From: a virus
DNA length: 43,543 bases
Strand: one strand, 5' to 3'
Virus genome (UHGV): UHGV-0074709
Positions 10,952 to 41,926 of the stretch are shown one piece after another. The position numbers were made by a program, and so were the translations under genes. A model generated the notes under the pieces. That model was not told the origin of the DNA. It searched no databases and saw only the letters and a list, made by a program, of their open reading frames with translations. The stretch's first letter is position 1. Every line of letters starts with the position of its first letter.

Positions 10952-12658
10952 ATGTCAACGATTGTGTTAAATAAAGCTCCGAGCAAGACACGCGGAAAAA
11001 TTGTCGGCAAGGGGATTAAACCCCCGAAAGCGATAGAGTGGGAAGCACGCCGGGCAATTAACCGCGCCTTGCAGGAATTTGACGCCGAAATGGAGTATTT
11101 TAAAAACCACGTTGAGGATTACACCCCGGCGCAGACAAGCCGGATTTTATCGGAGCTGCAGGACAAGTGGGCGAAAAAGATTGAGCCGATAGCCGATAGG
11201 ATAAGTGAAAACTGGCTTAATGCGATAAACGAGCGGCAAAAAAAGAAATCAATGGAAGTCTTGCGTAAAGCGCTTGGCGTTGATATATCCGCCATATTTG
11301 AAGACCCGCTTGTTCAGCAGGGGCTTGAAAATATGCGTTTTGAGGCGGCTTATTTGATTAAGACAATACCTTATGACAATATCGGTAAAGTCGCCGAGCG
11401 GGTTTATCAATACTACCGGGGCGAGCCTATGCCGGAGGGGCGGACACTCACGCAGCAGCTTGCCGAAGAGTTTAAAATAAAATACGAGCGCGCAAAAACT
11501 GTTGCCCGCGACCAGACAAACAAGATGAACGGGAATTTAACGCAGCTTAGGCAAACCAGCTACGGGATTGAAGAGTATATTTGGCGAACGGCACGCGACC
11601 AGCGGGTTGTCGGCAATCCTGCCGGGTTTTATCCAAAAGGCAACAGGGTTCACGGCAACCACTGGGAAAGAGAGGGGCATTTATACCGGTGGGACGAGCC
11701 GCCAGAGGACGGGCACCCGGGAAACGCTATAAATTGTTTACTCGGTGAAACTAACGTTATGTTCCCGTATGGTGCAAAAAAGCTCTTTAGACGGCACTAT
11801 AAGGGATTTATTTACATTATTACCACGAATACCGGGATTGTTTTGGAAGCCACTCCGAATCATCCAATACTTACTAGCAGAGGCTGGCTTGCGGTTAATG
11901 CACTCAAGCAAGGTGATAATCTCATCAAGGCAACAATTAAACCCGGTTGTATCACAAAAAACAACAACCGCAAGTTTATAGCCCAGTTTGGTGAGTTGTG
12001 GAATTCTTTTAAGGAGCCTGAATTGCGCTGTATTGGTGACAAATTTGACTTCCACGGCGACGGACTCGAAGATTATGTCTACATTAAAAATATCAATAGC
12101 CTTTTGCCTGAATACTGTATATCCTCGCGCCTCAAGAGCGTTGGCAAGTTCTTTTTCTCCTTTTCCTATATGGTATTCAGAAGGGTGCTTTTCTCTAGAT
12201 ATTGCCGCAAGTCTTTTCTGTTTATCCGTTCTTTTTGTTCCTCTAACGGCGTCGTGCGCGGCTTTTACAAGGCGTTTTCGTTCTTCGGAAGATGTTTGTT
12301 CCATTCGCTTAAACATTGCGGCAGATTGGTTGCGAATTATTGTCCCATTTTCGGAAAGAATCCGACAGACAACACCCCTAGAAACGCCGAGACGAGTAGC
12401 AATAGAAAGGACGCTTTCGCCATTGATATAGCAAGGAACTATCTTTTCGGGTGCGATGTTGATAATATTATGCGCTCTTCTTTTCATTTTGATTTTTCTC
12501 CTGTTGTAAAAATTGAAAAACAATATTTTGACGGCTATGTATACAATGCCGAAACAGCGACAGGATACTATATAGCTAACGGCATTGTCAATCATAATTG
12601 CCGGTGTTTTGCCGAGCCGGTTATTGACTTAGACAAATTAAAAGTCCAGTATTATTAA
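10952..12658 (+). CDS. Head morphogenesis protein (Mu gpF/SPP1 gp7-like), intein-containing
   Basis: ARDQTNK, YIWRTARDQRV and H..REG motifs; HPG..IN/CRC is split by an insertion. Confidence 0.92.
   Translation: MSTIVLNKAPSKTRGKIVGKGIKPPKAIEWEARRAINRALQEFDAEMEYFKNHVEDYTPAQTSRILSELQDKWAKKIEPIADRISENWLNAINERQKKKSMEVLRKALGVDISAIFEDPLVQQGLENMRFEAAYLIKTIPYDNIGKVAERVYQYYRGEPMPEGRTLTQQLAEEFKIKYERAKTVARDQTNKMNGNLTQLRQTSYGIEEYIWRTARDQRVVGNPAGFYPKGNRVHGNHWEREGHLYRWDEPPEDGHPGNAINCLLGETNVMFPYGAKKLFRRHYKGFIYIITTNTGIVLEATPNHPILTSRGWLAVNALKQGDNLIKATIKPGCITKNNNRKFIAQFGELWNSFKEPELRCIGDKFDFHGDGLEDYVYIKNINSLLPEYCISSRLKSVGKFFFSFSYMVFRRVLFSRYCRKSFLFIRSFCSSNGVVRGFYKAFSFFGRCLFHSLKHCGRLVANYCPIFGKNPTDNTPRNAETSSNRKDAFAIDIARNYLFGCDVDNIMRSSFHFDFSPVVKIEKQYFDGYVYNAETATGYYIANGIVNHNCRCFAEPVIDLDKLKVQYY
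11738..12487 (-). CDS. Antisense-encoded putative homing endonuclease (HTH plus Vsr/DUF559-like PD-(D/E)xK domain) within the intein
   Basis: AGGAG 10 nt before ATG 12487; HTH SVLSIATRLGVSRGVVCRIL; nuclease pattern EKELANALEARG..RQ..VDII..VAVEV. Confidence 0.8.
   Translation of the reverse strand: MKRRAHNIINIAPEKIVPCYINGESVLSIATRLGVSRGVVCRILSENGTIIRNQSAAMFKRMEQTSSEERKRLVKAAHDAVRGTKRTDKQKRLAAISREKHPSEYHIGKGEKELANALEARGYTVFRQKAIDIFNVDIIFESVAVEVKFVTNTAQFRLLKRIPQLTKLGYKLAVVVFCDTTGFNCCLDEIITLLECINRKPASASKYWMIRSGFQNNPGIRGNNVNKSLIVPSKELFCTIREHNVSFTE
12562..12591 (-). promoter_or_regulatory. Candidate sigma70 promoter for the antisense endonuclease
   Basis: TTGACA-18-TATCCT on the minus strand, within the codons for intein blocks F/G. 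Confidence 0.45.
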
Positions 12659-14914: not shown

Positions 14915-15060
14915 GGTTTTTTGAATTGCCTGCAGGCTGGCAGGAATTAGAAACGGCAACCGGCAACACTATCTGCCACCGGTTCAACTTATCAAATACA
15001 ACCGGGGAAGAGTTTATGATAAACTATTCCGGCGCAACCGTCTTTGCCGAATATTTATAA
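14905..15060 (+). CDS. 51-aa hypothetical protein
   Basis: MQIGFFELPAGWQE...; overlaps the RNase H stop codon. Confidence 0.4.
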   Translation: MQIGFFELPAGWQELETATGNTICHRFNLSNTTGEEFMINYSGATVFAEYL

Positions 15061-15066
15061 TAAATC

Positions 15067-15122
15067 TTTAAAGAAAAGGGCTTTTTCTTCGTTTCTACGG
15101 CGGACAAGCCCTTTTAGGACTT
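15067..15122 (-). repeat. Orphan copy of the endolysin 3' end (direct repeat of 15880-15935)
   Basis: 31 bp with one mismatch, ~56 bp alignable; encodes VLKGLVRRRNEEKALFFKDLL*. Confidence 0.9.
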
Positions 15123-15743
15123 TGAATATTTATTTATAAAATTTTCAATAGTTTTCCCTCTTCTTATTCCGCTAATTAGCGTTCCTTTATTTATCCCTAT
15201 GTGTTCCGCCCATTCGGTTAAACACATTGTCTTTCCGCCATAAGTTTCTAAATGTGTTGTTCTTCTGTTTCTTGATTGTTGCTTAATAGTAGCCCAACGG
15301 CAATTCTCTGGAGAATAATCGCCATTTACATCAATCCTATCAATGGTCAAATTTGAAGAATATCCGTTTTCTAAAGCCCAGTCGCGAAAAGAAACAAAAT
15401 CATTGAGCCATTGAGAACATATTTTTATGCCTCTTTTCCCGTAGCGTTTAAAGCAATGACAATTAGGATTATAACATCGTTGTTTCATTCCGGCATATAT
15501 GTTATAAAGTCTTGTTCCATAGGAAAAATGTTTATAATTTTTGCCTTTGTTTTTTTCGTTTTTCTGACAACCGCAAGAAAATGTCTTTTTATTTAAAATT
15601 CCATCGGCTCTTGTAATATGGATTTTTCCGCAATCACAAATACACTTAAAAAATTTTCTTTTTCTATTTTTTTGATAAATATATAAAACTTCTAAAACGG
15701 TTAATCTTCCGTGTTTTTTTCCTACATAATCTTCATCATTCAT
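15114..15743 (-). CDS. HNH-type homing endonuclease
   Basis: GRLTV, CICDCG, MKQRCYNP, YGKRGI and TIDRIDVNGDYSPENCRWAT..Q..N motifs. Confidence 0.9.
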   Translation of the reverse strand: MNDEDYVGKKHGRLTVLEVLYIYQKNRKRKFFKCICDCGKIHITRADGILNKKTFSCGCQKNEKNKGKNYKHFSYGTRLYNIYAGMKQRCYNPNCHCFKRYGKRGIKICSQWLNDFVSFRDWALENGYSSNLTIDRIDVNGDYSPENCRWATIKQQSRNRRTTHLETYGGKTMCLTEWAEHIGINKGTLISGIRRGKTIENFINKYSKS

Positions 15744-15765
15744 TTTATTTGCCTTTATAAAAAAA

Positions 15766-15794
15766 TTGCCTGTGTAAAAAAATAGCACAGGCAA
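15766..15794. promoter_or_regulatory. Hairpin between the endolysin and HNH genes (terminator or translational control)
   Basis: TTGCCTGTG...CACAGGCAA inverted repeat. Confidence 0.45.
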
Positions 15795-15816
15795 TAGGCA
15801 TTTTGCTTTTCGGGAG

Positions 15817-16290
15817 CTACCCTAGTGCTATATATTTTGAATAATATTTTTTTTCAAAAAAATCAACATCTAAAATATTTTTAAAGAAAAAAAATCTTTC
15901 TTCTTTTCTACGGCGGACAAGCCCTTTTAAGACTTGCCCATTTGCTCTACACCAGTTCCATTCAGCAAAAGCTTGTTCCCATTTTTTTTCTTCAATATAT
16001 CTATAACATTTTGATAATTCAAAAGAACCACCAATATTATATGAAATGCTAAAAAGACTTGCTTTCTGTTCATCGGTAAAGTCTCCTTTTGGCAGCTTAA
16101 TTTGTGTTTTGCAATACCACTCTAAAAGCTGGCAAGCCCTGTCTTCTGTTATCGGTTTGTCTGTTAATTTTACCCTTGCGCCCGATTCGTAGTAGGTGGT
16201 TCCGTAGCCGATGGTGACTTTACCTGCTGGACACAGATACGGTTCGGACTTAAACCCCTCGTATTTTTTGATTAAATCGTAAATCTTCAT
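15817..16290 (-). CDS. Endolysin, GH24 lysozyme
   Basis: IKKYEG...YLCPAGKVTIGYG (E-8-C-5-T triad) and GLVRRRKEE; ATG 16290 preceded by GAGGGAG. Confidence 0.93.
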   Translation of the reverse strand: MKIYDLIKKYEGFKSEPYLCPAGKVTIGYGTTYYESGARVKLTDKPITEDRACQLLEWYCKTQIKLPKGDFTDEQKASLFSISYNIGGSFELSKCYRYIEEKKWEQAFAEWNWCRANGQVLKGLVRRRKEERFFFFKNILDVDFFEKKYYSKYIALG

Positions 16291-16475
16291 TGCTTGTCTT
16301 CTCCCTCTTTTTTCAATAAGACGTTCATAATGATTATATCCGGTTGGCGCTTTTGAGTAAAGCACCGTTTAAAGACGGTTTTCGCCTCAAACTTAGAGTT
16401 GGCTTTAACAATCTTTGTTTTAAATTCTTCTTCCCCTTTAATCCAATAAAAAACCTCATAATATTTTGAAATCAT
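16287..16475 (-). CDS. Hypothetical protein
   Basis: ATGA overlaps on both sides. Confidence 0.65.
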   Translation of the reverse strand: MISKYYEVFYWIKGEEEFKTKIVKANSKFEAKTVFKRCFTQKRQPDIIIMNVLLKKEGEDKQ

Positions 16476-16813
16476 CTTTTCCCTCGCTTTTTTGGTTTTA
16501 ATCTATACTTTTCAATTTGTTCCGCCTCAGATAAAGGCAAGCCCAAAACTTTAACCCGATAGTATACTGTATTATAGACAAGATTTTTCTCTATGCAGTA
16601 TTGCCTTAGAGATAAACCGTCCGTTTCCCACTCCCGGCGCAGCCTCTTGCGGTTGGCAGAGGCGCAAGCCTCGTCTACGGATATATCTTCGTCAATTATC
16701 CGCTGGCGCAAGGTGTGATAATTAAAACCGTTTTCATTGCACCAGTCAACGAGGCTTTGACCGTCCGACCGCCTATACATCGGAGTTTTCCATTTAACCC
16801 CTTTTTTCGGCAT
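16472..16813 (-). CDS. Small DNA-binding protein with two HNH-associated HTH-like repeats
   Basis: DGQSLVDWCNENGFNYHTLRQRI and DGLSLRQYCIEKNLVYNTVYYRV. Confidence 0.7.
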   Translation of the reverse strand: MPKKGVKWKTPMYRRSDGQSLVDWCNENGFNYHTLRQRIIDEDISVDEACASANRKRLRREWETDGLSLRQYCIEKNLVYNTVYYRVKVLGLPLSEAEQIEKYRLKPKKRGKR

Positions 16814-17063
16814 TTTTTTTGCTCCGGGCTATTTTTTCATAGTCGGCGGCAGTGCTGCCCTTTTTAACAATCATCCCGCAGTGGGAGCAACGCCACTTGC
16901 CGAAAAAGGCATTATCCACCCCGCATACAAGCCAGACAAAAAGCCACACCCCGCACGTGATAATAGATAAAAACAAATGCAAGATATGGGAAGTGCCTTT
17001 TTTCTGGATTAAAACTTGCTTTTCGCAATACGGGCAATATCCCGTTCCGTTTATTATAGCCAT
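16794..17063 (-). CDS. LITAF-like zinc-ribbon membrane protein
   Basis: CPYC, hydrophobic hairpin (HLFLSIITCGVWL), then CSHC. Confidence 0.75.
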   Translation of the reverse strand: MAIINGTGYCPYCEKQVLIQKKGTSHILHLFLSIITCGVWLFVWLVCGVDNAFFGKWRCSHCGMIVKKGSTAADYEKIARSKKNAEKRG

Positions 17064-17069
17064 TTTTAT

Positions 17070-17366
17070 TTACTCCTTTAAATAGTTGTTTTCGTTCAAT
17101 ATGTTTTCCGCCAGTTGTTCGGCGGCGTATTCTATGTCCATCTCAAATATGCTTTCAACGCTAAACACGCCGGTTCTGACTTCCGGTATACATTCAGAAT
17201 AATATTGTTTTGCCGCCATTATACACGCGCCCGTTTCTATAACTGTTTTAGGCGGACGGTATCCGTCAACATTGAAAGGACTAAAAGCAACCGCTTTATT
17301 GTCTGCTTTGCATATTCCCACAAAGCGCAAGTGGTCGATGCCTTTTATAACGATAAATTTTTCCAA
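17070..17366 (-). CDS. Hypothetical protein
   Basis: AAGGAG RBS; operon packing. Confidence 0.7.
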   Translation of the reverse strand: MEKFIVIKGIDHLRFVGICKADNKAVAFSPFNVDGYRPPKTVIETGACIMAAKQYYSECIPEVRTGVFSVESIFEMDIEYAAEQLAENILNENNYLKE

Positions 17367-17641
17367 TCTTTTATCTCCTTATAAATAGAGGTTAATTCCT
17401 CAAAGGCTTTTTGCTGGTTAGATTTTCCGGTTATATCCGAAAAGTCATCGGTAACATAAAGCCAGTGCATAGCGTTGTTTACGGATTGAGCGCACTTTAT
17501 AATAAGGTGTTGCAATTCCCGGTTGTTATGCTGCAACATCTCGCATAAATTGATTGTGGATAACAAAACATCAGAACTTCTTTTCCCGTCATTGCAAGTG
17601 TTTAATTCGTCTTGCGATTTTACAATGTTCTTTTTAGGCAT
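17345..17641 (-). CDS. Hypothetical protein
   Basis: Directly follows the exonuclease gene. Confidence 0.65.
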   Translation of the reverse strand: MPKKNIVKSQDELNTCNDGKRSSDVLLSTINLCEMLQHNNRELQHLIIKCAQSVNNAMHWLYVTDDFSDITGKSNQQKAFEELTSIYKEIKDWKNLSL

Positions 17642-17642
17642 T

Positions 17643-18485
17643 TTAATCGTTCCCCCTATTCAAATACCAGTTAGAATACCGCATATATACCCTTTCAGGA
17701 TATGCCGCGAAAATATGCTTGTCTTTTGTTTCTTCAAAATCCTTGATTTTGTGGGCTATGTTATACAGGTGGCTTGCCCAGATGTCCCGCGCCGCCTCAA
17801 ATGTTTCTTGTTCAATATTGCAGACGGCAATAACATCTTCATAACCTGGCTCGTTTGATTGAATAATAAAAACGAATTCAACCGGATATTCGCCGTATCT
17901 TTCCCGAACTGCCTCGCAATAGTGGACGGCTTGGAGCGGATATTGCAGTTTTTCAGGCCATTTAATAACACCGTCAATATCGGAGCTTGTTTTATAGTCA
18001 ATTAAAACAATTCCCTGACTTGTGCGCTTTATAGCGTCAATTTTAGCCTTGCAATCAACATCATTTTCTTCATTGTGCCAAACAATAGGAAGTTCGGCAG
18101 TTGCCCCGGTTACAATCTTTTTGACTTCCGGGTGGGAGCGAAGATTCGCCAGCATAGCCGTTGCGTGATTCCACTCATCCTGACTAATGACGATTTTCCC
18201 CGGGTTTTCCTTTTTTGTTTTCTGATATGCCTTGTTTTTCCGGGATTGTCCGAAATCGGCGATAACATACCGGTTTTGTGCCGCTCTGGGTTCAAGTAGG
18301 AGGCAATGAGCAAGCCCGCCGAATATTAATGCGTCTTTGTCTTCTTCCTGCACTGCGTCAGGATTAAAAGGCGAGGTGCGCCAAAACTCATACGGGCTTT
18401 TGTCGTATGTTTTTATTTGGCTGGCCGATATTGCCGGATAGGCGAAATAATCATCGTCTGATTTTATGTCAATATCTTTTAACAT
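17643..18485 (-). CDS. RecE/exonuclease VIII-like PD-(D/E)xK nuclease (DUF3799-like)
   Basis: ISASQIK, FGGLAHCLLLEP, CKAKID, IDYKTS and YPLQAVHY motifs. Confidence 0.9.
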   Translation of the reverse strand: MLKDIDIKSDDDYFAYPAISASQIKTYDKSPYEFWRTSPFNPDAVQEEDKDALIFGGLAHCLLLEPRAAQNRYVIADFGQSRKNKAYQKTKKENPGKIVISQDEWNHATAMLANLRSHPEVKKIVTGATAELPIVWHNEENDVDCKAKIDAIKRTSQGIVLIDYKTSSDIDGVIKWPEKLQYPLQAVHYCEAVRERYGEYPVEFVFIIQSNEPGYEDVIAVCNIEQETFEAARDIWASHLYNIAHKIKDFEETKDKHIFAAYPERVYMRYSNWYLNRGND

Positions 18486-20040: not shown

Positions 20041-21012
20041 ATGAGTAACAATAGAGGCATTTACGGCGGTGTGCCGTTTGGCGCTATTCAAACCAACTTT
20101 TACGACCAGCAGGAAACCTCTGCAGACGGGCGGTTAGCTTATGCAAGCGATATTGACCTCTGCGATGCCATATCTGTTGGCGAAGAGGGCGGTGTTGGCG
20201 TTGGCTATGGCGTAAAAATCGTCGCTTTGTCCGGTGCGGCAAAACGCCCGGGAATTAACGACCAGCAGATTATTCTGCCGGATAGTTCTTCAACCGCTGC
20301 TGATTTTGGCGGTATGGTTATCCGCACAATGGCTGGCAATACCGGCGCTGACGGCGAAAACTATATGCGCGAAAAATCAATGGCAACCGTTCTGCGTAAA
20401 GAAAGAGTCGGCGGGCGTATTTATGTTCGTATGGCTGACGCTTTTACGGCTGGGGCTTCCGCTTATTGGCGTATTGCCGAACGCGTGCCGAATAGCAATG
20501 TTAAAGTAGGGCGTTTGTGCGGCGCGGCAATCTCCGGGCAGGGAACAACCCCGGCGGTAGCTGCAACCGGAACTGTAACCTTTACCGAAAATCCGGCAGA
20601 TGGCGACACGCTCAAAATCGGAAGCACGACCTATACCTTTAAGACATCACCGGCAGCTGCAAATGATGTTGCCATTAAAGGGACTGTATATGAAACAGCC
20701 CAGAATTTGGCGGACGTTATCAACGGCGATTCCGGCGAGGCATACGAGGGGACAACCTCTCCGTCTTTGGATGTTTCGGCAGAAGTTGAGGCTGGCGTAA
20801 TGACTTTGACTGCACGCACGGCTGGAACTGGCGGCAACAGCTTGGCTTTGGTGCAGACCGGCGATTTTGCAAACGTATCCGGCGCGACCTTGTCCGGTGG
20901 CGCTAATTCGTCAACCTCATCGGTAACCGATACAGTGCAGCTGCCGAATGTTAAGTTTAGAAGTTCCGGCGCTGCTGGCGACTTGGCTTTGGTTGAATTT
21001 GTAACCGACTAG
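20041..21012 (+). CDS. Head decoration/cement protein with an inserted T/G/A-rich domain
   Basis: Lies between the protease and capsid genes; ATVLRK..GRIYV; insert ATGTVTFTENPADGDTL. Confidence 0.7.
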   Translation: MSNNRGIYGGVPFGAIQTNFYDQQETSADGRLAYASDIDLCDAISVGEEGGVGVGYGVKIVALSGAAKRPGINDQQIILPDSSSTAADFGGMVIRTMAGNTGADGENYMREKSMATVLRKERVGGRIYVRMADAFTAGASAYWRIAERVPNSNVKVGRLCGAAISGQGTTPAVAATGTVTFTENPADGDTLKIGSTTYTFKTSPAAANDVAIKGTVYETAQNLADVINGDSGEAYEGTTSPSLDVSAEVEAGVMTLTARTAGTGGNSLALVQTGDFANVSGATLSGGANSSTSSVTDTVQLPNVKFRSSGAAGDLALVEFVTD

Positions 21013-30238: not shown

Positions 30239-31103
30239 CTTTAAGCGAAATTTGGAGTTGTTAGTGGGACCGTTGAAAGATTATCAAGGGGACGGCAACA
30301 GCCAGCAGGCAATACGGATATTGTCTGACGGCTCAACTTCAACTTTGCGCATTAAAGCCAATATCACAAAAAGTATGATAAGTATTCCGAATGCGAGCCA
30401 GATTACGGTTTACGGGCTATCAAAAGAAACAAGAAACAAAATAATGCAGAGTCAAGCCAGCGTCCGCCTTTATGCTTGGTATGACGGGCAGCAGAAAGAG
30501 CTTGTCTTCCGGGGCGGGATTTTGAATTGCGTTGTCAACCGTGAGGATACGGATATACCGATAACGTTAATATCTCTTGACGGGCAGGGCGGATTTATGC
30601 GTGCGCCGGTTTCCGTATCATATACAAACGGGATACAGTTAAAAGATGTTGTCAAGGACGTTGCCGGAAAAATACCGGGCATAACGATTGACGATAGCCG
30701 GATTGATGTTTCCGGGCAAGTAGGCTTTTCCGGTATGGCATACGCCGGAGGAGCAAAAGAGTTTTTAGACCGGCTGGGCGGGCAATATGGCTTTAGCTGG
30801 AGCATTAACAACGGCGTTTTTGAGGCGGTAAGCGACAAGCGCGGTTTTAATGTAGAAACTTTGCTGGGCGCGGGGGTTTTGATAAAAGCCTCCCCCATTC
30901 TATCCGGACCCGCGCAACAGCAAATAGGGACTGACATTCAGGCGTTATACGTCCCGGGTGTCAGCCCCGCTCAATTTGTCCGGTTGCAAAGTTCAATAAA
31001 TACGGAATTGAATGGACGCTATAAAGTCCACACAATGAACTTGAGCTTAGACACAAAAGCGGATAGCTGGACAATGAGCATTCAAAGTTACAGGCAGGGG
31101 TAA
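30231..31103 (+). CDS. Baseplate hub protein
   Basis: N..QITVYGLS, VFRGGI, WSINNG and GRYKV motifs; TTG start after GAGG. Confidence 0.8.
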   Translation: MINFKRNLELLVGPLKDYQGDGNSQQAIRILSDGSTSTLRIKANITKSMISIPNASQITVYGLSKETRNKIMQSQASVRLYAWYDGQQKELVFRGGILNCVVNREDTDIPITLISLDGQGGFMRAPVSVSYTNGIQLKDVVKDVAGKIPGITIDDSRIDVSGQVGFSGMAYAGGAKEFLDRLGGQYGFSWSINNGVFEAVSDKRGFNVETLLGAGVLIKASPILSGPAQQQIGTDIQALYVPGVSPAQFVRLQSSINTELNGRYKVHTMNLSLDTKADSWTMSIQSYRQG

Positions 31104-32027: not shown

Positions 32028-33302
32028 TTAAAATTGTCCATCGTTACCCCCGTTGTCAATGAATAGGCTTTTGGATTTCTTAAATAGAACTTCAAACTCT
32101 CCAGTTCTTCCGCGTCTGTTTTTTGCCACGATTATTTTGGCTTTGCCTTTGACGCGCTCCATTTCTTCAAGCCATTTGTTGTATTTTTTTTCTTCTGTTT
32201 CTTCCGGTTTCTGCAACATTAACAAGTTTTCAGCCGTATAAACAAACATTACAAGGTTAGAATCCTGCTCAATACTGCCGGAACCGCGCAGGTCGGACAA
32301 TATCGGCGATTTAACGTCGCGCCCCGCGTTGGAGCGGTTTAACTGGCTCAACAATAAAATCGGAATATTTAAATCTTGCGCGATTATTTTCACTTTACGC
32401 GACAAGTAGGTTAAAAGCGCCAACTGGTCTTTAAACCGCTTTTCAGAGCGTAAAATATGCAGGTGGTCAATAATTATCAGGCTTAAATCCTTTTTTCCGG
32501 CGCATATCGCCGATATTTTTTCAACCGTAGTATCTGCGTCGTCTATAAATTCAAGAGGTAAATCATTTTCAAGGCTTTTAGACTTTTCAACAACCGTATA
32601 AAATTCTTCTTGAGTGATTTTTGAAAAATCCGATATGCGTAAAGAAGAACATACAAGCCGCTTGTGCATTTCAACTTTTGTCATTTCAAGCGAAAAATAT
32701 AAAACTTTGCCTCCGGCTTGCGCTATTTGCGTTGCAATATTCAGCGCCAGCGTGGTCTTTCCTCCGCCCGAATAACCGCCGAGCGTGATAAGTTCGCCCT
32801 TTTCAAAACCGCCGATAAGCTTGTCAAGGCTTGGCAACCCGGTTTTAACAACCCGCGGATTGTCTTTGCCCTGATATTCAAGTTCAGCGTCGGCTAAAAA
32901 TTTATCCGAGGCGTTTTCTTCGGATTTTGGGAATAATTCAAAATGCTCAATTTCAAAAGCTTTTGTTACGTCTTCGGTTGTGTATAACTTTTGACCAGCT
33001 ATTTTTGCAAGCTCCCTTTCTTTCCAGTCTTCCACTAACTTTAAGGCGTAACAGTCAAACATTATCGGCTTTGAAAACTTTGTGTCCCGGTTAAGTTCAA
33101 GCAATAACTGAAAATTTACTTTGCCTTTCAAGGAGTCGCGCAGGCTTAGCAAATCAAAACTTCCAAGCTCTACCATTGCCGAAAAAATTTCCCTTGCCGT
33201 TGCGTCCGGCAAAAATTCAGCCTTAAAATTTCCTTTAAGTCTTGTAAAATTTTCAGGGAAAGCGACAAGCTCACTTAAAAACGTGTATTCAGCCTCATTC
33301 AT
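32028..33302 (-). CDS. dnaB: Replicative DNA helicase
   Basis: GYSGGGKT, FSLEM, IIDHL, LSQLNR, DLRGSGSIEQD and KNRRGRTG motifs. Confidence 0.96.
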   Translation of the reverse strand: MNEAEYTFLSELVAFPENFTRLKGNFKAEFLPDATAREIFSAMVELGSFDLLSLRDSLKGKVNFQLLLELNRDTKFSKPIMFDCYALKLVEDWKERELAKIAGQKLYTTEDVTKAFEIEHFELFPKSEENASDKFLADAELEYQGKDNPRVVKTGLPSLDKLIGGFEKGELITLGGYSGGGKTTLALNIATQIAQAGGKVLYFSLEMTKVEMHKRLVCSSLRISDFSKITQEEFYTVVEKSKSLENDLPLEFIDDADTTVEKISAICAGKKDLSLIIIDHLHILRSEKRFKDQLALLTYLSRKVKIIAQDLNIPILLLSQLNRSNAGRDVKSPILSDLRGSGSIEQDSNLVMFVYTAENLLMLQKPEETEEKKYNKWLEEMERVKGKAKIIVAKNRRGRTGEFEVLFKKSKSLFIDNGGNDGQF

Positions 33303-33306
33303 TTTT

Positions 33307-33993
33307 TTACTTCCAGTCCGATGTTGCCCATTTTATCTCTTCCTCTTTATCGGCGTATCCGCCCTCAACAGCTTTTTGCCATTTTGATTTTTGCAGAAAA
33401 AAGTCAAAATCAGCTCGCCACTTTCCCGAATCTCCACGCAAAAAGGAGCTTTCGTCAAGTGCTTTTTCCATTTGGTTGATAAATTCATCAAACCCCCCGG
33501 CGTCTTTTATCCGTTGTTTGAGTTTATTTTTCCTTTCATCCGTCAAGGTTTTTATTTGGGGTAAACTGTATTTTTCTAAAACAGAATTGATTTTTTCAAT
33601 GTCAAATTCACGAAAAACAATTTTATTGTTTTTTAAAAATAATTCTTGTTCTAGTTCTTGTTTATGTTCTTCGTTTATGTTTATGTTTAGGATATCGTTC
33701 GGTATCCGATTGATATCGTTCGGTATCCGATTGATATCGTTCGGTATCCGATTGATATCGTTTTTTTCTCTCCAGTAATTTCTTGATGTTTCGCCATTTT
33801 TTTTGCAACGTGCATTAAAATCTTCAAAATCTTTGTCAATTTGTGATTTTATAAAACGCCATACGCCGCAATCAACATCAATATTTGGATATTGCAAAAT
33901 TGCCTGAAAAATAGCAGCTTGCTTTTCAATAGGTAAATCTGATAAAAGCTCCCACCATTCGGGATATATACGCGGAGAAAATTGCTTTTTCAT
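33307..33993 (-). CDS. Replication initiator (lambda O-like organisation)
   Basis: Upstream of DnaB; internal tandem repeats; C-terminal FLRG..WRADFDFFL..EGGY. Confidence 0.85.
   Translation of the reverse strand: MKKQFSPRIYPEWWELLSDLPIEKQAAIFQAILQYPNIDVDCGVWRFIKSQIDKDFEDFNARCKKNGETSRNYWREKNDINRIPNDINRIPNDINRIPNDILNININEEHKQELEQELFLKNNKIVFREFDIEKINSVLEKYSLPQIKTLTDERKNKLKQRIKDAGGFDEFINQMEKALDESSFLRGDSGKWRADFDFFLQKSKWQKAVEGGYADKEEEIKWATSDWK
33691..33762. repeat. 21-bp tandem repeats x3.4 (GATATCGTTCGGTATCCGATT), probable iterons/origin
   Basis: Perfect copies at 33691, 33712 and 33733, partial copy at 33754; AT-rich flank. Confidence 0.85.
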
Positions 33994-34614: not shown

Positions 34615-35831
34615 GTGTAAACGTTTACGGTATGACTTCAACGGGCTTTAAGCCTAAAAGGCTGCGCGATTTGCTTGACGAAACAATGGCAGATATTCAG
34701 GCAATAACGGACGAAGACGGGCAAGCCGTATTTATTAACGAAACGGACGACAGCATAATCGGGCAGTTCAACGCAATTATTTGCGAGCAGCTTGCCGATT
34801 GCTGGCAACAAGCATACGCCGCCAGCACGCAGTTTGACCCGCTTAATGCTTTCGGCGTGGCTTTGCGTTCGCTTGTTCAATTAAACGGCATTGTTCCGGC
34901 TTATGGTTCGGCAACGCAAATAAACGTTACTTTGACCGGGACTTCTGGCACAGTTGTTCCTGCCGGTTCGCAAATATCCGATGTAAACGCAAACACGATT
35001 TTTAGCTTGAATAGTGATGTTATCATCGGCAGCGCCGGGACGGGGACGGGAGTCGCCACTTGCAACACGCTCGGCGAAATTAACCCGGCAAACAACACGA
35101 TTATTCAGATTTTAACCCCGGTTTATGGTTGGCACAATGTAACCAATTCAAGCGTAGCGGTGCTTGGCGATGACCCGGAAACAGACAATCAGCTGCATAT
35201 CAAACAGCAGCGCGAAACGTCAAACACTTCATATTCGCAAGTTGACGCGCTATATGCCGGAATAACAAACCTTGCCGGGGTTGATTATGTGCGTATATAC
35301 CAGAACTGGACGCTGGAAACGGACGATAAAGGAATCCCGGCAAAAACGATTGCAGCGGTGGTAGACGGTGGCGACACAGAGGCGATTGCAAATGTTATGT
35401 GGCTTAAAGCGCCGATGTTGTCAAATTATGCCGGGAATTTACCATCGCCGGTAACAATGTTTGACCGATTCGGGCTTGCCTATCAAATAACATTTTACCG
35501 CCCGGAAAAAGTCCCGGTGTATATTGATTTGGATATAACCATAACAGACGCGAGTATTTACCCGGCGGATGCCTACGACCAGATAAAGCAAAATATAATT
35601 GATTATGCAGCATACGGGCTTAATTCTTCAAACGGTTTTCCGCCGGGTTCTCCGGTTATTTATAGCCGCCTTTATACGCCTATTAACGAAGTCCCGGGCT
35701 TTAAAATCAATCATCTTTATATTGGGACGAGCGCAAGCCCGACCGGGACGAGCGACTTGGAGATGAGCTGGCTGCAGGTGGCGGAGTTTACAGCGGAAAA
35801 CATCAATATTGAACAATCAGTCGGGGCTTAA
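34611..35831 (+). CDS. Baseplate J-like protein
   Basis: DP..A.G..L, G.DPETD..L and VVDGGD..IA motifs. Confidence 0.9.
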   Translation: MSVNVYGMTSTGFKPKRLRDLLDETMADIQAITDEDGQAVFINETDDSIIGQFNAIICEQLADCWQQAYAASTQFDPLNAFGVALRSLVQLNGIVPAYGSATQINVTLTGTSGTVVPAGSQISDVNANTIFSLNSDVIIGSAGTGTGVATCNTLGEINPANNTIIQILTPVYGWHNVTNSSVAVLGDDPETDNQLHIKQQRETSNTSYSQVDALYAGITNLAGVDYVRIYQNWTLETDDKGIPAKTIAAVVDGGDTEAIANVMWLKAPMLSNYAGNLPSPVTMFDRFGLAYQITFYRPEKVPVYIDLDITITDASIYPADAYDQIKQNIIDYAAYGLNSSNGFPPGSPVIYSRLYTPINEVPGFKINHLYIGTSASPTGTSDLEMSWLQVAEFTAENINIEQSVGA

Positions 35832-36562: not shown

Positions 36563-37723
36563 ATGGTAGATATAAGAACAGTTACATTGCCGGCACTTTG
36601 GGCTGATGACGCTATAACCGAAATCCCTACCCCACCGATAGCAAATACGACCTACCGCAACACGGACTTGGGTTCAACCGAATTGCTGGCAGGCTGGCCG
36701 TATCAAAAAATTGTTGACTCTGCCGACTTCAACCAGACGTTGTGGCTTATATCAAACCTTGTCAAATCTTGCGAGCAATACGGCATTATGCCTTGGTGCG
36801 CCTCAACGACCTACAAACAAAACGGAATTTGCCTTGCCTCAAACGGAATTTTCTACTGGGCGAAAAAGGAAAACACTGGCGTAAATCCGGTAAATGATTC
36901 CGGTATGACAAACTGGGGCGTATTCCTAGACCCGGGAGATAACTTTGTTACGGAAACGGTTTTAACGAGCCAAATAAACCTATGCGAAAAGCTGGCAAAC
37001 AAGACACAAACGTTGTCCTCTTCATCCACCTCAACTCAATATCCGAGCGCCAAAGCCGTATATGATAATATCAACAACCTGCAGAACAGCAAACAGAACA
37101 ACATAACCGGCGGCGCAAGCACAATTACAAGTGCAAATTTGACCGCTGATAGAGTTTTGGTTAGTAGTGATAGTGGTAAAGTTGATACGGCGCTTAATAT
37201 TACACGTAATGAACTAAATATGCTTGACGGCGTGACCTCAAATATCCAAAGCCAGCTTAACGGTAAACAGGCATCCGGCTCTTATATGACCCTTTCCGGA
37301 AACCAGACCGCGGGCGGAATAAAGACATTTTCAGGGCAGATAATCCGTTCAGCAACACCAGGAGCAAGCGACAATTCAAACCAAGTTCCAAATACCGCTT
37401 GGGTCAACAGTCGCATAACGTCTATTATGAATAGTCGGAGCGGAGTTGAACAACCGAATTATGCAACGTTTCATGGCTTAATAACTTCAAGTTCTGGTAG
37501 TGAACAGTCAACAACCGCACCAAGTAAAGGCTGGATTTTCGCTCGTATGCAGTTAGATAATAACACAACCAGAACTGTATCCGTAAACGGCAAGGAAATA
37601 ATCAGCGTCAGAAGTGGCGCTGATTATTTGAACGGCAATGAATGTGGCGCTTGTTTCCCCGTCAATTCCGGCGATACTATCTCTTGTTTTAGAGCCACTA
37701 TTTATTTTTGCTCAAATTATTAA
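36563..37723 (+). CDS. Tail fibre: constant N-terminal region (aa 1-288) fused to the currently expressed cassette A (37427-37723)
   Basis: Follows the baseplate genes; GW...FN N-terminus; recombination site S1 encodes RITSIMN at the junction. Confidence 0.92.
   Translation: MVDIRTVTLPALWADDAITEIPTPPIANTTYRNTDLGSTELLAGWPYQKIVDSADFNQTLWLISNLVKSCEQYGIMPWCASTTYKQNGICLASNGIFYWAKKENTGVNPVNDSGMTNWGVFLDPGDNFVTETVLTSQINLCEKLANKTQTLSSSSTSTQYPSAKAVYDNINNLQNSKQNNITGGASTITSANLTADRVLVSSDSGKVDTALNITRNELNMLDGVTSNIQSQLNGKQASGSYMTLSGNQTAGGIKTFSGQIIRSATPGASDNSNQVPNTAWVNSRITSIMNSRSGVEQPNYATFHGLITSSSGSEQSTTAPSKGWIFARMQLDNNTTRTVSVNGKEIISVRSGADYLNGNECGACFPVNSGDTISCFRATIYFCSNY
37408..37435 (+). repeat. Shufflon site S1 (expression site): CAGTCGCATAA CGTCTA TTATGAATAGT
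   Basis: 16-bp core ATAACGTCTATTATGA shared by six sites; dif-like 11-6-11 layout. Confidence 0.92.
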
Positions 37724-38010
37724 ACAAGCGGGAAATAGTAGGCGGCTCCAATACCGTTTCCGGTAGTAGTAAACACAACAACATCACCTGCCGAAACGTA
37801 TAAAGGAAACGAGGCTATACCCACCATATAGTAACCGTCCACGGTTGAAACCGGTATATTATTATTATTGACTTTTATCTTGTCTATACGTGCTGAGTTA
37901 GTGTTTGATGTGGCTATAATCAAGCAGTCATAAGGTGCGGTAAACGAGGCTAAATTGGATACAGTCCCCATACTGGCATAGTTCGCTTTTCGTATTCCGG
38001 AAGTATTCAT
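37720..38010 (-). CDS. Alternative tail-fibre C-terminal cassette B
   Basis: Begins at the ATG inside S2; similar to cassettes A and D (TAP, FP..GD, YF); shares a TTAA stop with cassette A. Confidence 0.88.
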   Translation of the reverse strand: MNTSGIRKANYASMGTVSNLASFTAPYDCLIIATSNTNSARIDKIKVNNNNIPVSTVDGYYMVGIASFPLYVSAGDVVVFTTTGNGIGAAYYFPLV

Positions 38011-38029
38011 AATAGACGTTATGCGATTC
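38002..38029 (-). repeat. Shufflon site S2: GAATCGCATAA CGTCTA TTATGAATACT
   Basis: Inverted copy of S1. Confidence 0.92.
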
Positions 38030-38032
38030 GTA

Positions 38033-38060
38033 TTGACTACAACCGAAAACCGGTTAATAT
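38033..38060 (+). promoter_or_regulatory. Candidate promoter for the 38097 gene
   Basis: TTGACT-16-TAATAT with AACCG/CGGTT dyads. Confidence 0.45.
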
Positions 38061-38096
38061 AAAAACGGTTGCAACCAAAAATAGGAGTTTAAACTT

Positions 38097-38636
38097 ATGA
38101 CTGATGAAGTTATTGAAACGGCGGAAAATGTAGCCGCGCCGGAATATCCAAAACATACGGAGTGGGCGGATTTTGATATTGTCAATGGCAAAGTTGCCGT
38201 GATGAAACTTAACAAGCCCTATACGGAATATGACGTATCGTTTGAAGACCATTTTAACGGCAGCGATGAATATAAAACAGAAGAACGTTATGCACTTTAT
38301 ACGGCTTGTGCGATTGAGTGCAATAAAAACGGCGGCGAATATACGATTGACTGCTGGAAAAACCGCTACACGGTGCGAAAAGTTGCCGATATTGAGAAAA
38401 TCCACTACGAGAGTATGACGGATGAAGAAAAGGCAAAATATGACGCAGACAAGAAAAAAAACGACCTTGAAAACGAAAAAAGCGAACTTAACGGCAAACT
38501 TAGGGCGCTGGACTATATCGGCGTTAAAATTGCCACCGGCAGAGCTACGGCAGAAGAATACGCCTCGCAAATTGAGAATATGAAAAGTTATGCACAACGT
38601 ATAAATGAGATTGACAAAGAACTTTCGACGTTATAA
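38097..38636 (+). CDS. Probable tail-fibre assembly/chaperone protein
   Basis: AGGAG RBS; C-terminal L..LDYIGVKIA...R..INE pattern; position in the fibre locus. Confidence 0.7.
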   Translation: MTDEVIETAENVAAPEYPKHTEWADFDIVNGKVAVMKLNKPYTEYDVSFEDHFNGSDEYKTEERYALYTACAIECNKNGGEYTIDCWKNRYTVRKVADIEKIHYESMTDEEKAKYDADKKKNDLENEKSELNGKLRALDYIGVKIATGRATAEEYASQIENMKSYAQRINEIDKELSTL

Positions 38637-38700
38637 ATAATACTTGTTGAAATTGAATGTCAATTCACATCCTTTTAAATAGTTAGTGTTTATACAAGGG

Positions 38701-38733
38701 CAAGGCAGCTGTCAGGTGGCTGCCTTGTTTTTT
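38701..38733. terminator. Rho-independent terminator between convergent genes
   Basis: CAAGGCAGC-9-GCTGCCTTG followed by T6. Confidence 0.75.
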
Positions 38734-38763
38734 ATTGTCCTTTTATCGCTGTTGATTAAATGC

Positions 38764-39045
38764 TTAATAGCCTATTGCTGTCCAAAAATATGGGGCTGAA
38801 GATACCCCACCATAGAGATATATTGTAAAACCTGTTGTTGAAACATTATTAACCGCCGCCGCATAATTATAGCCGCTTCCTGAATTTGGCGTTATGTTTA
38901 TAGCAGGACTTTGGGTAAACGAATTTTCAAAAGTAATCGTCCGAGAAGAACTTGTTGATGTCCCCCATTGCACGATTAACCCGTTAGAAAATTTAATATA
39001 ATTGTCTCCTTTTTGGGAGGTATAACCGTACCCCACACTATTCAT
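38764..39045 (-). CDS. Alternative tail-fibre C-terminal cassette C (gp53-like domain)
   Basis: ATG inside S3; YIKFSNGLIVQWG...WTAIGY. Confidence 0.88.
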   Translation of the reverse strand: MNSVGYGYTSQKGDNYIKFSNGLIVQWGTSTSSSRTITFENSFTQSPAINITPNSGSGYNYAAAVNNVSTTGFTIYLYGGVSSAPYFWTAIGY

Positions 39046-39064
39046 AATAGACGTTATGCGCCCG
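39037..39064 (-). repeat. Shufflon site S3: CGGGCGCATAA CGTCTA TTATGAATAGT
   Basis: Copy of the core; its TAA is also the VRR-NUC stop codon. Confidence 0.92.
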
Positions 39065-39464
39065 TTTTTAAGTTCTTCACAAAATTGATAGCGTCCCCAA
39101 GCCCGCGCCAAATTGTATATTCAAAGCCGAGCGCCCGGACTTTCTGTTCAAATTCCCGTTGCGTGTCCGATTGCCGCCCGGTTGCGGTTTTTACCTCTAC
39201 AAAATAGGTTTTTCCTGCGTATAGGATAATTAAATCGGAAACACCGGAACGAACACCCTCGGCTTTAAGTTTTGCCGCAACGACCGGATTGCGCCAGCCG
39301 CCATTCGGAACGGCAAAAAAGGTAAAATCCTTGCGTGAGTTTTCCACAAGCTCTAAATACTGCACAATGGCGCATTGTATTTTGTGTTCTTCATCGTGTG
39401 GCTTTTGGCGCACGTTAAGCCCGCTTTTTTTAAGCTCCAGCGCCCAAGGGTTATTTTTTGGCAT
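39054..39464 (-). CDS. VRR-NUC nuclease (Holliday junction resolvase-like)
   Basis: EHKIQ, FAVPNGG, GVSDL and FVEVKT..GRQS..Q motifs. Confidence 0.92.
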   Translation of the reverse strand: MPKNNPWALELKKSGLNVRQKPHDEEHKIQCAIVQYLELVENSRKDFTFFAVPNGGWRNPVVAAKLKAEGVRSGVSDLIILYAGKTYFVEVKTATGRQSDTQREFEQKVRALGFEYTIWRGLGDAINFVKNLKTGA

Positions 39465-39606
39465 AATCTATCCTCTTATAAAATAAAACCCCTCTATCGT
39501 AAAATAAAGGGGCTTTGTGTAGGTATGGTTTGTTAAGATAATAATATGATGATATACTTTTTGGTTGGAACTATATGAGAAAAATTATATCGCCTCTTAT
39601 GTTATC

Positions 39607-39864
39607 CTATTTTCCCGGTTTGTCAACATCAAACAAAGAAAATTGAACTTTCTCTGCCTTTTTTAGCTTTTCTTCATCTCGGACGGTTGTGCCGATAATG
39701 AAGTCTTTAACCGTTATTAAGGTGCATAAAATCTGCTCCATAACCTCAATTTGATAAGCGGCATCCTTTTCGGATATTTTCTTAATCTCAACCCAGCGCG
39801 GGTATAACTTGCGCCTATATTCAAGCTCCCGCCGGATTGCCGCTATTTGCTCGTTAATTGTCAT
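39607..39864 (-). CDS. Hypothetical phage protein
   Basis: ATGA overlap with recT; RELEYRRKLYPRWV. Confidence 0.75.
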   Translation of the reverse strand: MTINEQIAAIRRELEYRRKLYPRWVEIKKISEKDAAYQIEVMEQILCTLITVKDFIIGTTVRDEEKLKKAEKVQFSLFDVDKPGK

Positions 39865-40781
39865 TTTTTAGCCTCGTCTTTGTTGTTTTCCGGTTGTTGC
39901 GTCTGATTAAATAACGGCTCTGGCTCTTCAAAATTAACTCCGGGCTTGCCGCTTTCTTCATCGTCAAGCTGGATATTGCCGTAGTCTATCGGCATATTTT
40001 CAAGCCCGGCAGTTAATTCTTGATTATCCACATATTCAATTTTTCCGTCTTTTTCCGCCGATTCGTCTTTGATAAACGCCGTTTGCAATTCAAGCGACAT
40101 TATACCCCACTTGCCTAAAAGTTGGCGCAACATCGTTTTAAATGCCATTTGGTCAAAATTTTTACTCCAAAAGCTCTCTTTTTTATCGGCTTTTAAGTCG
40201 TATTTATAGCTCTGCGAATAGGTTTTGGCGTGTTCTTCCATTTTGGATTTGCTCCAATAAATAGTCTTCTTAAACCCGTTCAAAAGCTCAAAATATGCCA
40301 TATATCCGATGACTTCCCGCTTTTCCCGCTCTTCTTCATCGGCAATAAAGGAAAATAAAAACTTTCCGGTGTATTTGTCGCGTCCCAAAAATTCGCCCTG
40401 CCGAACTTCCATAACGTCTAAATCCGCATATTGCCCGGAACGCAAGGCAAGCTGTATATATCCCCTGTATCCTAGCTGGAACGTTGCAACAACCCGGATT
40501 AAATTGCCTCTCTTGTCTTTTTCCTTAAAAGGCACAATGTAGTAGTAACCAAGCTGCGGACTCGGCGCAAGGTTTAGGCTTTCCCCGGTTAATCCTGCTG
40601 AAAATATGGTTGAGTGTTCGCAAGCCGCGAGCTGCGGGTTTGTTGACACAGCCGAAACAATGTGCGTAATGAATGATTGCCCGCGCTCCCCGCCTATAAC
40701 ATCGGCTACTTTTTGCTTTACAGCCGTTGTCGCCATAAATGAAGAAAAGTTGCCGCTTTTTGCCGGTTTTTGTAAACTCAT
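39861..40781 (-). CDS. recT: RecT-like ssDNA annealing protein
   Basis: LNLAPSPQLGYYYIVPF, FQLGYRGYIQLALRSGQY and W...FDQMAFKT motifs. Confidence 0.93.
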   Translation of the reverse strand: MSLQKPAKSGNFSSFMATTAVKQKVADVIGGERGQSFITHIVSAVSTNPQLAACEHSTIFSAGLTGESLNLAPSPQLGYYYIVPFKEKDKRGNLIRVVATFQLGYRGYIQLALRSGQYADLDVMEVRQGEFLGRDKYTGKFLFSFIADEEEREKREVIGYMAYFELLNGFKKTIYWSKSKMEEHAKTYSQSYKYDLKADKKESFWSKNFDQMAFKTMLRQLLGKWGIMSLELQTAFIKDESAEKDGKIEYVDNQELTAGLENMPIDYGNIQLDDEESGKPGVNFEEPEPLFNQTQQPENNKDEAKK

Positions 40782-40874
40782 TTTTTTACTCCTTTTAAAA
40801 ATGTTAGCATTGAAACATAGTTAAATATATTCAAAATTTAAATAATGTAAAGATATTTTTTTATTTTTTTAACA

Positions 40875-40902
40875 GTGGCGCATAACGTCTATTATGAATA
40901 CA
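40875..40902 (+). repeat. Shufflon site S4: GTGGCGCATAA CGTCTA TTATGAATACA
   Basis: Direct copy of S1; the left arm matches the E. coli dif XerC arm at 9/11. Confidence 0.92.
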
Positions 40903-41202
40903 AGCCGCCCCTTAAACTATGCAAGCCAAACAGCGGTTTCTTTTCCTTTAAGAACTTCAAGATATACAGCCCCGTCGCAGGGGGTTTATATGATATACGC
41001 CAAGTGGGCAGGTATAAATTCGGGTATTACTTGCTATGTGAATAATAAACCAATAGGCGCAGGTGGTAACAGCCAATCTGGTACTGCATATATAGACAAT
41101 GGCTCCAGCGCTTTTATTCCTCTAAATACTGGTGATGTATTATATTTTTCAGATAATTGCCGACAAGTTTTTTATGCTTATTTTGTGCCGTATGCGGGTT
41201 AA
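40894..41202 (+). CDS. Alternative tail-fibre C-terminal cassette D
   Basis: ATG inside S4; similar to cassettes A and B; shares a TTAA stop with cassette E. Confidence 0.88.
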   Translation: MNTSRPLNYASQTAVSFPLRTSRYTAPSQGVYMIYAKWAGINSGITCYVNNKPIGAGGNSQSGTAYIDNGSSAFIPLNTGDVLYFSDNCRQVFYAYFVPYAG

Positions 41203-41480
41203 TACCCGATAGCCAGCCATTGAAAAGCTGCTGTATCATTGTCGGTGCATTGTGTTTTAAATCCCGTTGTCGTAATTTCCCAGATAGACATTTCTTTATC
41301 AGTCGCCCCAGATGAATGTGAAGATTGATAGTTTTTAACACAAACAACAGAAGACGCGTTTGTAAAAGGTATGTTGAACGTATAAGTGATAGTAGATGAT
41401 GTAGTAACCCGTTCCTCTCCCCACTGGATAATAAGTCCGTTAAGATTTATATAACCGCTTCCCTTGGTTGTAGTATTCAT
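41199..41480 (-). CDS. Alternative tail-fibre C-terminal cassette E (gp53-like domain)
   Basis: ATG inside S5; GYINLNGLIIQWG...WLAIGY, paralogous to cassette C. Confidence 0.88.
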   Translation of the reverse strand: MNTTTKGSGYINLNGLIIQWGEERVTTSSTITYTFNIPFTNASSVVCVKNYQSSHSSGATDKEMSIWEITTTGFKTQCTDNDTAAFQWLAIGY

Positions 41481-41499
41481 AATAGACGTTATCAGACGC
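41472..41499 (-). repeat. Shufflon site S5: GCGTCTGATAA CGTCTA TTATGAATACT (degenerate left arm)
   Basis: Core conserved; outer part of the left arm divergent. Confidence 0.88.
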
Positions 41500-41505
41500 T
41501 AGGAT

Positions 41506-41907
41506 TTATGCCGTACGTTTCCAAATATTAACTGTTAAAGCCGTCCTTGTAACAGTGCCGACAATACCGGAATTATTTGCGTCTGATGTTAAACCTAGCA
41601 ATTTACTTCCTGACGGCCGCGTGCCTGCATTGCCAGATTGAACAACGCCGATATTTTTGCCGTATGCCTCACTTGTTAAGCTCGGGAAAAACCAGCCGTA
41701 CCCATTATCACCTTGCGAACAACCGAAATTTGCATCTCTGTTTGTCCAGCCCATACTTTTTCCGTTTCCTTTGATTGGGACACTTGTGTTAACGGAAGTA
41801 ATCAAAGACGAGCCTACTTTTTGCCAAGTGCCTATGCCAAGCGCTTGTAGCGGGCAGGTGCTTTGCGTACCAAAATAGAGGCTGCCGACCGGGTAAACCG
41901 TCCTCAT
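41506..41907 (-). CDS. Alternative tail-fibre C-terminal cassette F
   Basis: ATG inside S6; YPVGSLY...GTW...VNIWKRTA fibre/baseplate C-terminal motif. Confidence 0.88.
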   Translation of the reverse strand: MRTVYPVGSLYFGTQSTCPLQALGIGTWQKVGSSLITSVNTSVPIKGNGKSMGWTNRDANFGCSQGDNGYGWFFPSLTSEAYGKNIGVVQSGNAGTRPSGSKLLGLTSDANNSGIVGTVTRTALTVNIWKRTA

Positions 41908-41926
41908 AATAGACGTTATGCGACTG
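41899..41926 (-). repeat. Shufflon site S6: CAGTCGCATAA CGTCTA TTATGAGGACG
   Basis: 24-bp perfect inverted match to S1. Confidence 0.92.

Follow-up and report, generated by a model that had tools for sequence, protein, structure and literature searches.

The virus genome UHGV-0074709, analysed here as a single stretch of 43,543 nucleotides (the window), is that of a 43.5-kb contractile-tailed phage according to Pfam and PHROGs profile searches. Its tail-fibre gene (open reading frame, ORF, 36563-37723) sits after the baseplate wedge genes, and between here and position 41926 there are six copies of a short repeat, with alternative ends for the fibre and several other genes among them. An earlier note on this DNA, made from the letters of the sequence, took the region to be a six-cassette tail-fibre shufflon in a phage that carries no recombinase gene. 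The six copies of its 16-bp core are exact, with 0 mismatches (37415+, 38007-, 39042-, 40882+, 41477-, and 41904-), where a chance mean of 0.38 would be expected and 0 of 100 shuffles reach six, and there are no extra copies in the window at up to 3 mismatches. The coordinates that the note gave lie 5-7 nt below the core starts, but they are the left edges of 28-bp sites, S1 to S6, each made of partly inverted 11-bp arms around a 6-bp spacer that is identical in all six. This 11+6+11 arrangement is the layout of dif, as described in PMC9226527 and, for Escherichia coli dif, in PMC3025954.

S1 lies inside the fibre gene, where it encodes RITSIMN, as had been reported, and divides a constant 5' part from the cassette that is currently fused to it. 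The same in-frame ATG is found at every site, heading ORFs of 93-133 aa, with no Shine-Dalgarno-like run ahead of the cassette ATGs, and the TTAA stops said to be common to cassettes A/B and D/E are present. There is therefore a constant 5' part with variable 3' cassettes in frame at a repeated site, as in a fibre shufflon, and the predicted fibre-cassette fusions are 381-421 aa. Cassettes A, B, and D can be aligned with one another as members of a divergent family, while C and E form another, with 35% identity. The structural model of cassette A (pLDDT 84) is only weakly similar in fold to domains of the jelly-roll, carbohydrate-binding, and C1q-like kinds (best Z 7.4), all of them common jelly-rolls. 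From the domain matches and this model, the cassette tips are likely to bind receptors. With the six cassettes largely in two families, the six receptor specificities proposed in the earlier note are at most tentative.

Four ordinary genes that are absent from the earlier note lie between the sites: orf179, a VRR-NUC nuclease gene, orf85, and RecT. There is no Pfam or PHROG match for orf179, and Atlas searches provide no name for either orf179 or orf85, the weak lead for orf179 being to a tail-fibre assembly chaperone (a cluster at Atlas 0.85, 28% of whose members have PF02413). Promoter-like sites precede orf179 and RecT inside their own segments, which would mean that both genes work in either orientation, although with 20 such sites in the window against 11.7 in shuffles this is weak evidence. 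The positions of these features are given in Table 1.

Table 1. Sites, fibre cassettes, intervening genes, and protospacers in the window.
Feature	Position	Strand	Basis or remark
Protospacer	17144-17173		0 mismatches
Protospacer of G455 spacer 2	20174-20203	+	30/30 match
Protospacer	30482-30511		2 mismatches
Protospacer	30746-30775		2 mismatches
Protospacer	35297-35326		1 mismatch
Tail-fibre gene, constant part, 288 codons	36563-37426	+	PHROGs tail fibre phrog_20878, E 2.8e-7; conserved in 7 relatives
S1, dif-like expression site inside fibre ORF	37408-37435	+	Arms 9/11 + 9/11 to G455 dif, 9/11 + 11/11 to G067 dif
Cassette A, 98 aa, currently fused	37427-37723	+	Predicted 8-strand beta-sandwich
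Cassette B, 96 aa	37720-38010	-	Aligns with A; fibre-fused in L002/L003/L070
S2, dif-like site	38002-38029	-	Core search, arm comparison
orf179	38097-38636	+	Promoter-like site upstream; terminator 38696-38732
Probable decayed seventh site	38734-38753	-	Left arm kept, spacer collapsed; from sequence, inferred
Cassette C, 93 aa, Gp53-like_C / H-lectin-like	38764-39045	-	PF21882 E 1.4e-8, PF09458 E 6.8e-6; fibre-fused in L004, L065
S3, dif-like site	39037-39064	-	VRR-NUC stop codon inside its left arm
VRR-NUC nuclease, on invertible block	39054-39464	-	PF08774 E 2.3e-7
orf85, on invertible block	39607-39864	-	No named family matched
RecT, on invertible block	39861-40781	-	PF03837 E 3.1e-37; promoter-like site 40851-40824
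S4, dif-like site, oriented as S1	40875-40902	+	Degenerate in L002, L005
Cassette D, 102 aa	40894-41202	+	Aligns with A/B family
Cassette E, 93 aa, Gp53-like_C	41199-41480	-	PF21882 E 1.4e-14
S5, dif-like site, direct repeat of S6	41472-41499	-	Left arm degenerate
Cassette F, 133 aa, Gp10_C-like	41506-41907	-	PF21939 E 9.7e-7; fibre-fused in L005
S6, dif-like site, end of locus	41899-41926	-	

The cassette order differs between related genomes, a comparison that the earlier note had proposed as a check. The fibre flank is present in 13 of the 19 contigs of the same lineage (window included), where it is joined to 7 cassette types; L002, L003, and L070 have one common arrangement and may be one strain. 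The block of orf179, RecT, orf85, and VRR-NUC has the forward orientation in 8 contigs and the reverse orientation in 3, and is split by S4 in the window. In contig L065 cassette A is found at both block ends, and in L068 the VRR-NUC flank is at both, which suggests two forms within one assembly. Public sequencing run X5 contains the joint of an S4-S6 inversion, with 40878 connected to 41922 on the other strand (19 shared letters, side 206), as well as a loose end of 8 nt consistent with fusion of the fibre to C. In run X3 the ends of cassettes C and F both lie on the RecT-side flank. The assembly of run X1 is split at the sites, and here 38740, within the probable decayed seventh site, is joined to 40895 on the opposite strand. 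Of the 29 metagenome contigs, 10 have an end no more than 70 nt from a site, where 1.7 would be expected. Alternative arrangements with their breakpoints at the sites are thus present both in relatives and among contigs.

In the case of L001, which has a 99.7% match to the D/E pair of the window, the segment from S5 to S6 that would hold cassette F is cleanly missing, which is what a crossover between direct repeats should leave. Unrelated lineages share cassettes; a copy of cassette F that is 89% identical is present in the unrelated phage L012, for example. One other lineage has reciprocal two-state forms (L090 versus L108 and L126). The shufflon is real, and the inversion logic set out for it, in which S1 can recombine with S2, S3, S5, or S6 and cassette D is reached in two steps, is correct. 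Elsewhere, L058:1849 is a hybrid site of two left arms from which the cassette pair has gone, and looks like the result of recombination in the wrong alignment. The fibre of L005, L006, L012, and L019 ends in a 26-aa mini-cassette, after which L012 and L019 have a separate ORF of 200-490 aa, suggesting a switch to an adapter-plus-adhesin tip.

No tyrosine or serine recombinase had been recognised in this phage, and the six-frame search that had been suggested also finds none. There are none by Pfam and PHROGs on 68 ORFs, none by Pfam on the other 61 of 119 stop-to-stop frames of at least 90 aa, and no tyrosine recombinase among 1275 six-frame segments by a custom hidden Markov model (HMM), built from 16 host recombinase loci, for which the positive controls are part of the training set. 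Among whole phage records, some of them incomplete and L001 not one of them, PF00589 is matched in 0 of 4 and 0 of 5 (the five including G415, not shown to be a shufflon), with controls positive in 14 of 14, PF00239 in 0 of 4, and PF07508 in 0 of 5, of which G001 and G003 are probably one record, leaving likely 4 distinct. The only tyrosine-recombinase HMM match among the fetched phage loci is in L128, a single-site locus. No dedicated invertase gene, as would be sought beside the cassettes of a fibre shufflon, is recognisable. These empty searches, together with the cassette order in relatives, the junctions within assemblies, and the contig breaks, support the earlier proposal that fibre tips are swapped by inversion without a phage recombinase.

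The genome had been described as apparently complete, with which two observations agree. The two contig ends share 60 nt, which belong to a 60-bp tandem repeat, and the end-to-end join is crossed in relatives L001 and L005 with repeat units alone intervening, which makes a missing gene at the join unlikely. A gene with this 20-aa (60-bp) tandem repeat spans the contig ends (43336-43543 and 1-746), its copy number varying among relatives.

The alphaproteobacterial genome G455 links this phage to a likely host. It has a 20-spacer array of clustered regularly interspaced short palindromic repeats (CRISPR) beside a 1170-aa ORF, which we take to be Cas9-like from its start and size. Within 2 mismatches, 5 of the 20 spacers match the window, two of them perfectly, where reversed controls need at least 9; none of the spacers matches any of four other phages. 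Of 401 Alphaproteobacteria, 21 have a chromosomal site with the same arms, each of them once, while the control gave 4 matches. One of these 21, G067, belongs to the host family, 282 genomes of about 1-2 Mb that include G455, and the same-arm site is found in 215 of the 282, mostly as a single copy. FtsK-orienting polar sequences (KOPS; motif as given in PMC5357621) point toward the host site in 41 of 42 cases across ten genomes chosen for long contigs, and in 7 of 7 in G455, where one side is available. GC skew is lower to the right of the host site in 10 of 10 genomes. Since 41 of 42 KOPS point inward, we take this chromosomal site to be dif.

The xer-like proteins of G455 have TIGR02225 (XerD) and TIGR02224 (XerC) as their best NCBIfam models, and the genome also has FtsK-family matches. 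The right arm of the phage sites matches the dif of G067 at up to 11 of 11 positions, while the phage spacer matches that of G455 dif at 3 of 6. The dif layout, arms that match host dif, host genes for XerC- and XerD-like proteins, and partner sites that share a spacer are therefore all present. DNA related to the lysis region of the window is found in several host-family genomes, and in one, G462, there is a fibre gene with such a site. An RNase H query has no match in the 401 Alphaproteobacteria at 1e-30, and the list of RNase H homologues includes one protein from an 'Acetobacter sp.' metagenome-assembled genome. This protein hints that the lineage may belong to the order RF32. Homologue and cluster searches with DnaB name no host.

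By pattern scans, the same arms are found in several phages whose DNA has little or nothing in common with that of the window. Among multi-site loci there are five spacer types, and 33 of 36 loci have a single spacer throughout; this count leaves aside the single-site loci from the pattern scans, most of which look like chance. In L021 and L055/L023 the spacer of the fibre site differs from those of the cassette sites, so that they may be locked switches or ones that came from another phage not long ago. A complete 40-kb phage (G413:887, L119) has a two-site shufflon and a single third site with a near-host spacer, possibly an Xer attachment or dimer-resolution site. None of the 10 loci that the pattern scan of genome contigs returned resembles the window by tblastx, and in the phage collection there are 3 weak fibre matches only. 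None of the window ORFs, other than the fibre, is common to most of the shufflon lineages.

Sites that mimic dif in a phage with no recognisable recombinase make it likely that host XerC and XerD do the flipping, and we would put the probability that they act in trans as the invertase on the phage fibre sites at roughly 0.8. Bound to the phage sites, host XerC and XerD would carry out strand exchange over the common spacer, giving inversion between opposite sites and deletion between direct repeats. The right arm of each site supplies the cassette ATG in the fibre frame, so that any crossover of opposite sites gives a full-length fibre, and the swapped tip would change the cells that the phage can bind, with possible effects on host range at whatever rate switching occurs. 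The private spacer would permit exchange from site to site while disfavouring integration into the chromosome. A search for sites that could pair with host dif finds no host-spacer site or other close site in the window, and there is no shufflon site in the genome contig collection. With orf179, RecT, and VRR-NUC between most of the direct pairs, deletion products would probably be selected against, while a lone cassette such as F could be lost or traded between phages. There is precedent for the reaction, since in Acinetobacter plasmids reversible inversion takes place between pXerC/D sites whose spacers are identical (PMC9947245), and these inversions are credited to host Xer.

Several observations weigh against this role for host XerC and XerD. 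XerD normally requires FtsK (PMC9226527), yet there are only 4 KOPS in the window, the nearest pointing away from the locus, and no common activator is seen among the window ORFs across the shufflon lineages; the activation of Xer is the main gap in the mechanism. Agreement of the phage arms with G455 dif is limited to 7-10 of 11 positions (left 7-9, right 7-10), and 3 of the 36 multi-site loci mix two spacers. On the host side, the G455 XerC and XerD scores are below the equivalog cut-offs (295 versus 329.6 and 314 versus 335), there are two further tyrosine-recombinase (PF00589) matches in that genome, and only 4 of 9 genomes show a change in the sign of GC skew at the host site, for which reason GC skew by itself was set aside as a weak dif marker. 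The evidence for rearrangement is from contigs of related strains, none of the sequencing runs has half of the window's words, and a binding function for the tips depends upon Pfam matches for C, E, and F and the weak fold matches for A.

The alternative that survives best, although improbable, is that another tyrosine recombinase acts in trans, perhaps the integrase or invertase of a host island or helper prophage, the likeness to dif reflecting shared ancestry of the sites. The two PF00589 matches of G455 beyond its XerC/D-like pair could be such enzymes, as could one dedicated to the dif-like inverted pairs that host chromosomes have of their own, and the lack of any visible FtsK-independent activator would also fit. 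One of the two extra recombinases is, however, a low-scoring protein of 178 aa, and in several unrelated lineages of phages each of the two asymmetric arms matches its own counterpart in the KOPS-defined dif, left with left and right with right.

It is far less probable that the phage recombines its short repeats by micro-homology, through the RecT and VRR-NUC encoded inside the locus, where the VRR-NUC gene ends in S3. The exact repeats in the window are only 16-24 nt, lineages with the same sites gave no tblastn match to RecT or VRR-NUC when their DNA was compared, and annealing would not keep the dif arms across phages while the spacer varies. An equally slight chance attaches to the differing orders being rare historical rearrangements or assembly artefacts, with no live switching. 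The evidence does consist of contigs, and coexisting junctions could stem from several strains in a sample, but the repeats are shorter than the usual assembly words, the joins are always in frame at the site, the two-state forms of the other lineage are reciprocal, and contig breaks at sites far exceed chance. That the phage encodes a recombinase of a family that no library recognises is barely credible in spite of its many small ORFs without a family, as no family-less window ORF is common to the lineages using the same sites and a dedicated enzyme would not need the arms of host dif.

If host XerC and XerD are the invertase, their use may be wider than this phage. The chances appear evenly balanced that XerCD is a public invertase for unrelated tailed phages of this gut alphaproteobacterial family, which would have dif mimics with private spacers in their fibre genes and exchange tip cassettes as modules that Xer mobilises, and that the hosts use it likewise for large proteins of their own that are likely to be on the cell surface. 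A single housekeeping recombinase would then serve phage and host alike in their arms race over receptors. Host-family chromosomes have extra dif-like sites with non-dif spacers (L259, G426:C2:31144 and 33904; L258, G463:C63:7276 and 7596; L260; L261), some in inverted pairs and some where a contig ends, and long ORFs rich in Cys, Ser, and Thr either contain them or lie next to them. These sites are possibly instances of host phase variation by the same enzymes.

Elsewhere in the window, minus-strand genes of early type (RecE-like exonuclease, replication, RecT) and endolysin are scattered amid the structural genes (15114-18485, 32028-33993, and 39054-40781). A 65-nt repeat at 15058 and 15871 flanks an HNH gene, the head morphogenesis protein (10952-12658) has a match to an intein-splicing domain (PF14890), and 21-bp tandem repeats in the replication initiator gene (33691-33762) are possible origin iterons.

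The tail-fibre switches named in the literature cited here carry their own invertase, and scans for them tend to key on that gene, which would mean that a switch driven by host XerCD is missed. Such a switch would explain some invertible loci that lack a recombinase; invertible regions with no recombinase nearby have been noted (PMC9881135), in a paper whose main text does not name Xer. No report of an Xer-driven phage fibre switch turned up in the open-access literature, covered at the level of listings and abstracts. If the role of XerCD is as proposed, Xer hijacking gains a use beyond integration and the shuffling of plasmid modules. Questions on the activation of Xer away from the FtsK zone, and on what limits deletion without a directional invertase, become testable, and further cases can be sought by a simple rule: host dif arms, a private spacer, and an in-frame ATG.

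The earlier note, which left the enzyme open and passed over the likeness of the sites to dif, had compared the locus with the Rci, Gin, and Cin systems. The swapping of C-termini fits these well; it is as a mechanism that the dif-mimic sites make the pXerC/D sites of Acinetobacter a closer match. Like the R64 pilV shufflon (Rci/sfx; PMC11852207), the locus swaps several C-terminal cassettes at asymmetric tyrosine-recombinase sites, but R64 does so for a plasmid pilus adhesin with a dedicated Rci, a gene that has no counterpart here. The phages CTX, VGJ, and TLC, known as IMEX, likewise have no recombinase of their own and use host XerCD through dif-like sites, as is proposed here (PMC5357621, PMC9226527). 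They integrate at dif by one site, whereas in this phage a gene is rearranged through six sites whose spacer is not that of the host. In the pdif (pXerC/D) modules of Acinetobacter Rep_3 plasmids, several dif-like sites are also present on a mobile element, active pairs have an identical spacer, reversible inversions and fusions are ascribed to host XerC/D, and modules move between elements (PMC9947245). Those sites flank whole plasmid genes, while in this phage they are in-frame coding sequence of the fibre gene and build alternative proteins.

Closest in product are the Rin shufflon of Bifidobacterium prophages and the Min, Gin, and Cin systems, in which a receptor-binding protein has a constant N-terminus and variable C-termini of approximately 95-100 aa, inverted at short sites (PMC6109161). 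Rin (tyrosine) and Min, Gin, and Cin (serine) encode their invertase beside the locus, where none is recognisable here. The rix site of Rin is 11 bp and not described there as dif-like, in contrast to the sites of this phage, and that account describes no recombination genes between the sites of these systems, where RecT and VRR-NUC are found here. Judged on its sequence, the locus works like a Min or Rin shufflon, but without a dedicated invertase and with pdif-like sites serving as coding sequence.

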